NCBI RefSeq assembly: GCF_051903065.1
Contig: NZ_CP178438.1
Length of the DNA: 64,000 nucleotides
Reading direction: 5' to 3' (one strand)
Source of the DNA: Escherichia coli
GTDB taxonomy: Bacteria; Pseudomonadota; Gammaproteobacteria; Enterobacterales; Enterobacteriaceae
Both the position numbers and the translations under genes were made by a program. Under the pieces are notes generated by a model that saw only the letters and a list, made by a program, of their open reading frames with translations, had not been told where the DNA came from and did no database searches. Below are positions 24,270 through 26,748 of the stretch, one piece after another. The stretch's first letter is position 1, and the number at the start of each line of letters is the position of its first letter.

Positions 24270-25169
24270 TTACGCAGAGAAAAAGGCGATGAGGATCGGC
24301 ACTAACAGGCTAAGAATAAAACCGTGAACAATTGCCGCCGGGACCATATCCAGCCCGCCAGTACGTTGAAGAACGGGCAGGGTGAAATCCATCGACGTCG
24401 CACCGCATAAGCCCAGTGCGGTAGAGCGGCTGCGGCGAATCAGCCCAGGGATCAACATAATTGCAATCAGCTCACGGGCCAGATCATTAAAAAACGCCGC
24501 GCTCCCGATTACCGGACCAAAAGATTCGGTCAATAAAATACCGGAAAGAGAATACCAGCCGAAACCAGAGGCCATTGCCAGCGCGGTATTGATGGGTAGA
24601 TCAAGAATAAAGGCGTTAATTAAACCACCAATTAATGAACTGGCAACCACCACCACGGCGACAATCATTCCCCGGCGATTAAGGACAATCTGCTTTAAGG
24701 TCATGCCATTATTGCGCAACTGAATACCGACGAGGAAAAGTAGCAGAATTAAGGTGTATTCACTGGCTTCGGTCGCGTGTTGTAAGAAAGCCAGTCCACT
24801 CAGGCCAATGGCAAAACCAATCACTACTACGCCGCACAGTTTTAGCGACTCAAGCGCCATCGCAATACGCGACGGGAGTTTTTCTTGCTGATGGTGGTTG
24901 CGCCACGGCAGACCGCGCTCCAGCCACATAAGGGCGGCAATATTACACAGTAAAATAACGGTAATACTGACGGCAGAATAATGCAGAATCGCCAACAGGT
25001 TACTGGCGAGGTTATCGAGAAACGCCAGACTGATACCCATAAAAAAGAGAATAAGGTAAACCATCCAGCTTAATAGCTGATTAATAACTCTTAATGCAGC
25101 TTTTTGGCGAAGCGGAATGAGGTAACCCACAATCAGGGGAACCAGAATGATTAACAGCCCAGAAAACAT
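24270..25169 (-). CDS. ybjE: Lysine exporter LysO (YbjE)
   Basis: 299-aa multi-TM ORF. Confidence 0.85.
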   Translation of the reverse strand: MFSGLLIILVPLIVGYLIPLRQKAALRVINQLLSWMVYLILFFMGISLAFLDNLASNLLAILHYSAVSITVILLCNIAALMWLERGLPWRNHHQQEKLPSRIAMALESLKLCGVVVIGFAIGLSGLAFLQHATEASEYTLILLLFLVGIQLRNNGMTLKQIVLNRRGMIVAVVVVASSLIGGLINAFILDLPINTALAMASGFGWYSLSGILLTESFGPVIGSAAFFNDLARELIAIMLIPGLIRRSRSTALGLCGATSMDFTLPVLQRTGGLDMVPAAIVHGFILSLLVPILIAFFSA

Positions 25170-25627
25170 GAAAACCCAGCCCTTGCAAAGAAAGAAGTCG
25201 AAATGCGCGATGACACACTACTGAAAGCGGAAGGACGAGTAAAGTTGCAATTAAAAGGAAATGTTATGCATCAGAGGGGGATTTTTAATTCTATATGAGT
25301 GTTTAGCATTGTTGCGCTCCTTTCATGTGCAATGCCATATAAAGCCACTGGCGCAGGGAGCGCGCAGGGGGCGGCCAGTCGCCGCCGCCCCCTGCCCCCC
25401 CCGGGCTCTGGCGAAAAAAATCGCCGCTGCGCGGTACCTTCAGCTTATCCCCTTCTGCTACCGGGTCGGGCGCGAGGTAACGTCCTGTAAGACGCGCCCT
25501 CAGCCCACATCCATGTGGGCTGCCCCGGCCTTCGGGGAACGCTTCAGCGATTTTGACGCCACCAACACCCGTGCGGTTTGTAACGTCGAAGATAAAACAA
25601 CCAGGGCAGATAAAATGCCAATGCTAA

Positions 25628-26323
25628 TTAATTACGTTTTTCCAGCAGGGTCCGGTAAATCAGACCACCGATAATGCCGCCGACAATTGGCACCACCCAG
25701 AAGAACCACAGTTGTTCTAATGCCCAGCCGCCCTGGAAGATGGCAACCGCGGTGCTGCGCGCCGGGTTAACAGAAGTGTTAGTCACCGGAATACTGATTA
25801 AGTGAATCAGGGTTAAGGCCAGACCAATAGCGATCGGCGCAAAACCTGCCGGAGCGAATTTGTCGGTTGCGCCGTGGATCACCAACAGGAAACCTGCACT
25901 CAATACCAGTTCAACTACCAGCGCGGAAAGCATGGAATAACCGCCTGGTGAATGCTCGCCATAACCGTTAGAAGCAAAACCGCTGGCTGCCGCGTCAAAA
26001 CCCGTTTTACCACTGGCAATTAAATACAGCAGCGCCGCTGCAACAATACCGCCGACAACCTGGGCAATTACGTAGCCAACGACTTCTTTTGCCGGAAAAC
26101 GTCCGCCAGCCCATAAACCAATAGTGACCGCCGGGTTAAAATGACCACCAGAAATATGACCAACAGCGAAGGCCATCGTCAGAACGGTCAAACCGAATGC
26201 CAGCGCCACGCCGGCAAAACCAATGCCTAATTCCGGGAAGCCTGCGGCCAGTACAGCACTACCACAGCCACCAAAAACAAGCCAGAAAGTACCAAAACAT
26301 TCAGCTGCTAATTTTCTGAACAT
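25628..26323 (-). CDS. aqpZ: Aquaporin Z
   Basis: 231 aa from [12 protein letters not shown]; two NPA motifs (HFNPAVT, NPARS). Confidence 0.93.
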
Positions 26324-26748
26324 ATCCACCTCAATTAAAAATTGACCCTGTGAAAAATATGGTCGTTTTATAGGGTCGTCGTAAAAAAGTGACGACGGAA
26401 ATAATGCGCGGCTATTTTAAAAACGAAGGCGAGTCATTCACCAGATAAATAAATCCAGTAAATTTGATTTAGGGCAACAGCGGGTTGCCCCATATAGTCA
26501 TTTGTCTGATTGACAGTGTAGTGCAAGCAAAAGATTTAATCCTTTAGGCGTAATAAAAAATAATTTATCATGCTAATTATTTGATTTTGTTGTTTTTGCA
26601 GACTTATCAGCAAGAGGGAGTATAACGCGATTATTCGCTCATTTTTCAGACATTTGCCATGCTTAAATGTGATGTCATCACGTATTAGCAAGGCCTTTCC
26701 CGTTATACTGCCAGCGTAAAGGATAAGTCACATATTTCTGGAGGGGAT

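Follow-up and report, generated by a model that had tools for sequence, protein, structure and literature searches.

A natural inverted allele of the replication risk sequence RRS-lysO (TRIP1a) between aqpZ and lysO of Escherichia coli

The intergenic repeat TRIP1 was first listed by Rudd in 1999. Its copy TRIP1a lies between aqpZ and ybjE (lysO), where in E. coli K-12 it spans 266 bp, 70 bp downstream of aqpZ and 158 bp upstream of ybjE; other E. coli sites are TRIP1b at putP, TRIP1c between yohI (dusC) and yohG (mdtQ), TRIP1d between alx and sstT, and TRIP1e between copA and ybaP (PMC10888264). According to that survey, the 1999 listing is the sole earlier report of TRIP (PMC10888264). Independently, Pham et al. 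found RRS-lysO and RRS-dusC, termed 'replication risk sequences' (RRS), and stated that they are Rudd's TRIP1 (PMC10287960; PMC11194060). Here we analyse a 64,000-nucleotide stretch of E. coli DNA (the window), in which a G+C-rich, hairpin-dense block between aqpZ and lysO is a natural inverted allele of RRS-lysO/TRIP1a.

In K-12 each RRS lies ~650 kb from dif and carries one G-quadruplex (G4) motif, GGGGGTGCAGGGGGCGGCGG, on the lagging-strand template (PMC11194060). When single-stranded, the GC-rich element folds into a G-quadruplex and hairpins (PMC11194060, PMC13308219). It blocks DNA polymerases (Pol) I, II and IV in vitro, and gives rise to transient lagging-strand gaps of single-stranded DNA (ssDNA), up to ~2 kb long and loaded with RecA and SSB; gaps are triggered at any site, given that the G4 strand is the lagging-strand template (PMC11194060). 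At least one RRS is required for viability of K-12 unless a 200-kb region is amplified, and deletion or inversion of both RRS alters global supercoiling (PMC11194060). Engineered inversions in K-12 gave no RecA/SSB peak in vivo, yet retained the viability function (PMC11194060). For the reverse orientation, single-molecule experiments in vitro (Kusi-Appauh, 2026 preprint) reported ~325-nt gaps at ~66% of encounters; these too lie on the lagging strand, as folding extends to the C-rich strand (PMC13308219). Pham et al. cite the pilE G4 of Neisseria gonorrhoeae as the sole other example of such a G4. There, likewise, a G-quadruplex leads to a gap or nick that is tied to replication, specific to one strand and of biological function; the pilE G4 differs in its local action, the initiation of pilin antigenic variation, in its need for a small RNA (sRNA) transcript and in not being a dispersed repeat.

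The block between aqpZ and lysO

We compared the block with the element known from this locus. Over 276 bp it is 89.9% identical to the aqpZ-lysO copy of the K-12-like EV36, which reads the other way with respect to the genes. A megablast search with positions 25330-25627 as the query, run against 5426 complete E. coli genomes, gave matches in 5425, with 3 sites per genome as the median and 8 as the maximum, so that its nature as a dispersed repeat goes beyond what had initially been described; the 64-kb window holds no further copy. The G4 motif of the window, GGGGGGGGCAGGGGGCGGCGG, differs from GGGGGTGCAGGGGGCGGCGG of K-12 by one T-to-G change and one extra G (21 nt versus 20), and, as expected of an RRS, a single predicted G4 motif is confined to one strand, here the minus strand. 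With the same locus, ~90% identity and the same hairpins, the window element is orthologous to K-12 RRS-lysO. It differs in its orientation, reversed with respect to both the neighbouring genes and replication, in its G-run (G8, compared with G5-T-G in K-12), in an HP2 loop shorter by 1 nt, and in lacking the adjoining aqpZ terminator. We therefore consider it very probable that the block is the lysO-proximal copy of TRIP1/RRS (TRIP1a = RRS-lysO), the ssDNA-gap element of K-12, here flipped and with a predicted weaker triggering of gaps. As to what the element is, nothing new is added: it is already known and explained. Box C and RSA, two early candidates for the block, were dropped in favour of TRIP1/RRS. 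The features of the element and its neighbours are given below; the ends of the unit are placed where similarity to the dusC copy of strain 23CRST027 stops, a strain that is identical to the window at the lysO locus.

~25309-25583, minus strand (the G4 or 'RRS-G4' strand): TRIP1a/RRS-lysO repeat unit, by homology to the K-12-like copy
25382-25401, minus strand: G-quadruplex-forming motif GGGGGGGGCAGGGGGCGGCGG, found by regular expression; overlaps the complement of the C8 run
25364-25395, no strand assigned: H2, a perfect 12-bp G+C stem, 25364-25375 with 25384-25395, loop of 8 nt
25314-25363, no strand assigned: H1, GCGCTCC (25314-25320) with GGAGCGC (25357-25363); helix 13 of the family alignment
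25501-25522, minus strand: HP1, hairpin CAGCCCACAUGGAUGUGGGCUG, the second inverted repeat of the initial annotation; minus-strand loop CAUGGAUG
25468-25499, minus strand: HP2, hairpin GGGCGCG...CGCGCCC; minus-strand loop ACAGGACGU
25410-25561, minus strand: P1, outer closing stem, 25540-25561 with 25410-25431; helices 1, 2 and 9
25424-25434, minus strand: mini-hairpin CCGCTGCGCGG, inside P1 together with HP1 and HP2
25584-25627, minus strand: spacer particular to this allele, from the aqpZ stop codon to the repeat, standing where K-12 has the aqpZ terminator hairpin
25628-26329, minus strand: aqpZ (aquaporin Z), upstream neighbour of the block on this strand; annotation from the identical record
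24270-25169, minus strand: lysO/ybjE (L-lysine exporter), downstream neighbour of the block on this strand; annotation from the identical record

The lysO-aqpZ intergenic spacer occupies 25170-25627 (458 bp) within the gene order hcp-lysO-repeat-aqpZ-ybjD. In 100-bp windows its G+C content is 0.64-0.74 across 25300-25550 and 0.36-0.45 in the flanks. The inverted repeats and the C8 run (25395-25402) that first drew attention to the block all lie where they had been reported, and the view that the block resembles neither an AT-rich spacer nor a repetitive extragenic palindromic (REP) element is borne out: it is a discrete, densely structured element. Its extent had been given as 25330-25560; the structure there is real, but the block is wider, as the repeat unit spans ~25309-25583. 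The 10-bp stem noted initially, cagggggcgg (25365-25374) with ccgccccctg (25385-25394), is the inner part of the 12-bp H2 stem, the G-rich arm of which overlaps the G4 motif. In HP1, CAGCCCACAT (25501-25510) pairs with ATGTGGGCTG (25513-25522) over 10 bp with 100% complementarity. The predicted RNA folding energy is -146.3 kcal/mol for the minus strand (z -4.1) and -128.3 for the plus strand (z -3.3), and the predicted DNA folding energy is -78.4 (z -4.4) and -73.0 (z -4.5), respectively; none of the 200 dinucleotide-preserving shuffles behind each z-score equalled the native fold.

Over the 64 kb the plus strand of the window has the composition of a leading strand (GC skew +0.039; Chi sites 15 versus 4; FtsK-orienting polar sequences (KOPS) 6 versus 1). 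The minus strand carries the G4 and also serves as the coding strand for aqpZ and lysO. The G4 motif therefore lies on the leading-strand template, not on the lagging-strand template as natively in K-12, and the element is thus a natural 'inverted RRS'. We take the K-12 orientation of the G4 as descriptive of K-12 and not as defining for the RRS/TRIP1 sequence family. In this strain the weaker 'RRS-C' strand (plus in the window) would be the lagging-strand template, so that gaps would be expected to be rarer and smaller. Predicted ssDNA folding of the window element is good on both strands (z about -4.4 to -4.5), and the inverted element would still supply the orientation-independent viability function.

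The initial annotation had also considered that the block might be only the aqpZ terminator followed by the ybjE (lysO) promoter. It does sit between the aqpZ stop and lysO start codons, GC-rich hairpins could hinder RNA polymerase or exonucleases, and genomic SELEX (systematic evolution of ligands by exponential enrichment) in K-12 predicted a constitutive ybjE promoter, TTGACG-19-TGTAAT, within the right end of the repeat (PMC3946193). However, on neither strand of 25000-25800 did scanning reveal an intrinsic terminator (a hairpin with a trailing U-tract), and it revealed no promoter-like site (-35/-10 elements with 16-18 nt spacing, facing lysO) in the intergenic region; the window's TTGACG-20-TGTAAC (25553-25584) faces the aqpZ 3' end, away from lysO. 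The genuine aqpZ terminator of K-12, hairpin AAGGCCTGGCGTAATGTCAGGCCTTTTTTT, stands outside the repeat and, as seen from the alignments, is absent from the window allele. Moreover, the same sequence is present at many unrelated loci, among them putP, dusC, alx and copA and many in other genera, for which reason we rejected the terminator-plus-promoter reading as extremely improbable. Since the K-12 hairpin is absent, transcription of aqpZ probably enters the repeat in the G4 sense. At 25584-25627 a weak GGCA...TGCC hairpin and then a U-rich stretch follow the aqpZ stop codon.

Natural alleles in E. coli

The inverted allele of the window is common. With a 901-bp query spanning the locus, the orientation of the window was found at lysO in 1281 of 5426 complete genomes (24%), O157:H7 strains included; the remaining genomes mostly have the K-12 orientation, and a few records aligned to part of the query only. 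Li et al. counted 3448 forward and 1255 reverse copies of TRIP1a (PMC10888264). The dusC locus is K-12-like in 3314 of the 5426 genomes (61%) and inverted in ~38%, O157:H7 again among them. Strain 23CRST027 is 100% identical to the window over the 901 bp, and its dusC copy is also inverted compared with K-12, so that a genotype of the 23CRST027 type is a natural double inversion. In this strain the copy in the dusC-mdtQ spacer (TRIP1c/RRS-dusC; L116:3560-3835, comparison loci being cited by L numbers with positions) has its G4 strand opposite to dusC. None of 60 sampled records had an empty aqpZ-lysO site.

Engineered double inversion alters supercoiling in K-12, and yet inverted copies are common in nature. 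We found no discussion of natural orientation variants in the accessible text of the RRS work. The TRIP1 population survey and the RRS work on replication and topology are two lines of 2024, linked here, of which neither, in its accessible text, refers to the results of the other. Inverted copies occur in about one quarter to one third of natural E. coli, O157:H7 included, and provide ready-made strains for the question of orientation.

Copies at the two loci also resemble each other in part. The hairpin module of the window (25403-25567) is closer to the dusC copy of the locus-identical strain 23CRST027 (L116:3580-3740) than to the lysO copy of K-12, whereas the H1 loop of the window copy differs from both. 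The likeness of the lysO and dusC hairpin modules points to gene conversion (concerted evolution) between copies, as far as sequence comparison can tell.

Short forms make up ~7% of the sampled records; that of strain 536, for example, lacks the two central hairpins. ST131 carries an allele in the K-12 orientation with an 80-bp deletion of the same two hairpins, and the copy downstream of putP (TRIP1b; L003:2377-2700) is a short form without the central ~125 bp. These are three independent deletion alleles: strain 536 (L110:321-640), ST131 (L111:321-734) and the putP copy. In all three the GGA hairpins (HP1 and HP2) are gone, with different breakpoints, and the segment with H2 and the G-tract is kept, which suggests that the G-tract part may be the indispensable part in E. 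coli.

At alx-sstT, 1669 of the 5426 complete E. coli genomes carry TRIP1d. The others, K-12 among them, do not have an empty site there; they carry a different G-rich repeat, CCCTCTCCC...GGGAGAGGG...GGGGTGAGGG (comparison of L112:900-1300 with L113:205-604), which we take to be possibly Box C. A near-identical GAGGGAGAGGGCTGGGGTGAGGGG motif adjoins the left end of copies in Leclercia.

Copies in other Enterobacteriaceae

We searched one genome per species by exact pattern and obtained 101 loci, in Citrobacter, Escherichia, Klebsiella, Enterobacter, Leclercia, Lelliottia, Silvania, Trabulsiella, Pseudocitrobacter, Huaxiibacter and Raoultella. Multiple copies per genome are frequent: blastn found 13 places in one Klebsiella chromosome, and a Citrobacter youngae genome gave 8 pattern matches over six loci. 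Among 72 loci with neighbouring genes compared, 37 lie between convergent genes, 16 and 16 between co-directional genes in each of the two orientations, and 3 between divergent genes; there is no bias of orientation relative to the neighbouring genes. Local GC skew places the G4 strand in leading-strand composition at 25 loci and in lagging-strand composition at 26 (Chi sites 67 versus 76), these measures being a rough and noisy proxy for the direction of replication (51 family loci from other Enterobacteriaceae). In the sample analysed here, Klebsiella, Citrobacter, Leclercia and their relatives have the family as a multicopy, modular repeat for which no rule of orientation is evident, and this tempers the claim of conserved RRS pairs flanking the replication terminus region (Ter). 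The multicopy presence across Enterobacteriaceae, like the covariation of the stems and the conserved GGA loops set out below, is not described in the accessible text of the TRIP1 and RRS papers.

Copies also occur in composite arrangements. In Citrobacter and Enterobacter we observed inverted pairs arranged tail to tail (L060-L065 of Citrobacter sp. Res13; L033:2064-2316), the partners of which are ~70% identical and are separated by a conserved AT-rich spacer of ~90 bp, from which the G4/GGA-sense strands diverge. Leclercia adecarboxylata NCTC13032 (L098:10000-10470) has three tandem partial right-hand copies, ~190-200 bp apart.

We looked for signs of mobility. The phage collection held no match to the repeat. 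Several plasmid matches are mis-labelled or multi-megabase chromosomal records, and the true ones that were checked adjoin ordinary metabolic or transport genes. No convincing terminal inverted repeats were found beyond TTNTTGCGCT/AGCGCAANAA at the ends of the K-12 allele, nor was any target-site duplication or associated transposase. Target duplications are undefinable here, because no empty aqpZ-lysO site was found and the 'empty' allele at alx-sstT holds a different repeat. RRS of the E. coli/Klebsiella type were also seen in assemblies labelled Pseudobutyrivibrio, Bacillus, Ensifer, a Sporobacter metagenome-assembled genome (MAG) and a 'Proteobacteria' MAG (L018, L078, L103, L042 and L021); these look like enterobacterial contamination, mostly on very short, low-coverage contigs.

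The distribution of the copies bears on an alternative explanation, in which the family is primarily a selfish or neutrally tolerated modular intergenic repeat that reaches gene 3' ends by spreading or through recombinational exchange, and the gaps in K-12 are a by-product of its extreme foldability and not a selected function of this copy. This would agree with the variable copy number (1-8 per E. coli genome, and the higher-copy Klebsiella and C. youngae genomes), with the preponderance of convergent over divergent spacers (37 and 3 of 72), with both orientations at one locus, with the mosaics of tail-to-tail pairs, tandem partial copies and long and short forms, with the alternation at alx-sstT of the repeat with another repeat instead of an empty site, and with the lack of a replication-orientation bias. 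In its dispersion, extragenic location, enrichment at gene 3' ends, richness in hairpins, modularity and occurrence in both orientations, the family also resembles REP and bacterial interspersed mosaic elements (BIME), the enterobacterial repetitive intergenic consensus (ERIC) or intergenic repeat units (IRU), and pneumococcal BOX elements. Unlike these, to which it has no sequence relation, the repeat is longer (~270 bp), has far fewer copies in E. coli and an experimentally shown effect on replication, and lacks a known mobilising enzyme like the REP-associated tyrosine transposases (RAYT). We regard the explanation as unlikely. Both K-12 copies could not be cleanly deleted, and their deletion alters global supercoiling (Pham et al., PMC11194060); virtually every complete E. 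coli genome has the lysO and dusC copies, with no empty aqpZ-lysO site among the sampled records; and purifying and compensatory selection is clear on the loops and stems. Target-site duplications, terminal inverted repeats of the transposon type, a transposase and phage copies are all missing from what was searched, and the plasmid matches are mostly mis-labelled chromosomes.

Conserved fold and the GGA loops

We aligned 73 non-redundant long-form copies (family alignment A4) and derived a consensus fold of 60 pairs. Compensatory changes were seen in 27 of the 60, and 98.8% of paired cells can pair, compared with 39-45% in controls with the partner slid by 1-3 columns; the covariation score was 0.345, and 0.04-0.08 in the slid controls. 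Helices 11 and 12, which form H2, have compensatory changes in 7 of 9 pairs, and helix 6 (HP1) covaries in 5 of 6 stem pairs. Whole stems are swapped between subfamilies, as in H1, with GCGCTCC/GGAGCGC in Escherichia and Klebsiella being replaced by CGTTCAC/GTGAACG in Citrobacter and Leclercia. The pattern of four G-tracts at the G4 site is present in 69 of 73 copies, and in 1 of 73 on the complementary strand. The initial annotation had proposed covariation across species as a check, and a lack of compensatory changes as evidence against its suggestion; the stems do covary across species, and that evidence is therefore not there.

Covariation cannot separate folding of RNA from folding of ssDNA. 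We compared the two strands. The consensus energy is -78.2 kcal/mol for the GGA strand and -58.8 kcal/mol for the other, and among pairs predicted on both strands G-U wobbles (17 pairs, 26 cells) outnumber A-C wobbles (5 pairs, 10 cells). The comparison favours the G4/GGA strand without deciding the matter, since the predicted fold of each strand recruits its own wobble pairs.

The loops of HP1 and HP2 on the G4 strand are the most strongly conserved single-stranded parts of the family: both fit CA.GGA.G (CANGGANG), each in 72 of 73 copies, with an invariant A and GGA and two N positions that vary freely. In 72 of 73 copies the GGA of one loop stands 27-28 nt from that of the other. The sequence CANGGANG is the recognition consensus of CsrA/RsmE. 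For CsrA the SELEX consensus is (R)UACARGGAUGU, and the repeat of CsrB is CAGGA(U/C/A)G; the consensus and the range over which a CsrA dimer bridges two sites are reportedly established in earlier work (Dubey 2005; Schubert 2007; Mercante 2009). Judged by these consensus sequences, HP2 of K-12, UACAGGGAUGU, equals the SELEX consensus, and HP2 of the window, CAGGACG, equals the CsrB repeat; the HP2 loop of the window has a 1-nt deletion compared with the family CA(N)GGA(N)G. A GGA exposed in a loop of the A/UCANGGANGU/A type, at two candidate sites within bridging distance, is thus predicted for 72 of 73 copies per loop.

We searched Rfam at a permissive E-value with the window and 24 other loci. 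On the element itself the search gave solely sub-threshold matches to TwoAYGGAY, the best in the window being 32.1 bits (E 0.0087; 25403-25567, minus strand) against a gathering score of 43. The K-12-like copy scored 30.6 bits and other copies, in E. coli and Enterobacter, 30.6-37.2 bits; four Klebsiella and Citrobacter copies searched had no match at E<0.1. A match to CsrC of 8.6 bits was set aside as merely a GC hairpin. Because all scores are below the gathering score, we do not assign the element to TwoAYGGAY, and the search of covariance models suggested initially places it in no Rfam family. Of the proposal of a small structured RNA, the structured element holds; the RNA is not supported, as no family reaches its gathering score and the demonstrated function is the folding of ssDNA at the fork (PMC11194060, PMC13308219).

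The likeness to TwoAYGGAY RNA (RF01731; Weinberg 2010) nevertheless extends to several features: a pair of neighbouring hairpins whose loops read A(Y)GGA(Y) (ACAUGGAUGU), a long P1 stem, which in the repeat covaries, and multiple copies in one genome, for the gamma-proteobacterial seed members that of Psychromonas ingrahamii and not of enterobacteria; wherever the repeat gives a match, it does so on the GGA strand. AYGGAY agrees with the HP1 loop, AUGGAU; the HP2 loop of the window is CAGGAC, and the family loop CA(G/U/A/C)GGA(C/U) fits only where U or C precedes GGA. In contrast to TwoAYGGAY, the repeat is G+C-rich and not A+U-rich, has H1, H2/G4 and the mini-hairpin in addition, and usually has CAGGGAC/U as its HP2 loop. 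There is no evidence of common descent of the repeat and TwoAYGGAY. With CsrB/CsrC/RsmZ-type RNAs and the target hairpins of CsrA the repeat shares GGA in a CANGGANG loop and two sites that one CsrA dimer could bridge; it differs from these RNAs in having only two sites per element and no dedicated promoter or terminator, and in lying at random orientation to genes.

It is conceivable that the element or its central module acts as an RNA in the G4/GGA sense, as a dual CsrA site resembling TwoAYGGAY or a minimal CsrB/CsrC, which could coexist with a function as DNA. The GGA sense is the sense of aqpZ and lysO, and the K-12 aqpZ terminator is absent; the module would therefore sit in the 3' untranslated region (UTR) of aqpZ or the leader of lysO, where it could titrate CsrA or render the flanking mRNAs responsive to it. 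Consistent with this are the match to TwoAYGGAY (clan CsrB/RsmB) on the GGA strand in every copy with a match, the proposal of TwoAYGGAY as a CsrA-binding RNA (PMC4333381), the conservation of both loops and their agreement in K-12 and in the window with the CsrA consensus sequences, and the more stable consensus fold and the excess of G-U over A-C on this strand. On the other hand, the repeat has no preferred orientation to genes (16 versus 16 co-directional loci and 37 convergent ones), and ybjE and dusC are not flagged in the tables of E. coli CsrA crosslinking and immunoprecipitation sequencing (CLIP-seq) and integrated data (PMC5694010 supplement), peak coordinates being unavailable. Natural E. 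coli alleles have repeatedly lost the hairpin module and always retained the G-tract segment, every Rfam score is below the gathering threshold, the scan gave no promoter or terminator that would delimit a transcript, and the covariation is equally explained by folding of ssDNA. On balance we hold an RNA function to be rather improbable.

Several observations weigh against the identification of the block as a working K-12-type gap element. In engineered K-12 the in vivo read-out of RRS is absent in this orientation (PMC11194060), and gap triggering in this strain may be weak or nil. Inverted alleles are common in nature (~24% at lysO and ~38% at dusC), and the locus-identical strain 23CRST027 has both copies inverted. 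In other Enterobacteriaceae the G4 strand shows no preference relative to local GC skew (25 versus 26 of 51 loci). Finally, the G4 model accounts neither for the near-invariant CANGGANG loops nor for the strong covariation seen in hairpins outside the G4; the loops point to a specific binding partner, which that model does not predict. Conserved GGA hairpins in at least 11 genera (~70 copies), alleles in either orientation, double inversions included, and the lack of a replication bias together suggest a function independent of orientation. The selected function of RRS/TRIP1 might accordingly act through recognition of the GGA hairpins, by CsrA on transcripts or by another protein on folded ssDNA, with the gaps in K-12 as one consequence and not its core; we put this forward tentatively and think it doubtful.

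Two further Rfam matches were noted close to copies of the family. In Trabulsiella guamensis (L108:2696-2906) a C4 antisense RNA scored 58 bits, above threshold, ~2 kb from the RRS-like copy, and the same spot gave sub-threshold matches to isrK and c4-a1b1; the C4/isrK matches are probably the remnant of a P1/P7-type prophage unrelated to the repeat. In Lelliottia sp. V86_10 a diverged inverted partner beside the RRS-like copy (L039:873-964, minus strand) scored 40.2 bits with AaHKsRNA22 (Aggregatibacter sRNA 22), just above the gathering score of 39.8, and this partner element also has hairpin loops CAUGGAUG and CAGGGAUG.

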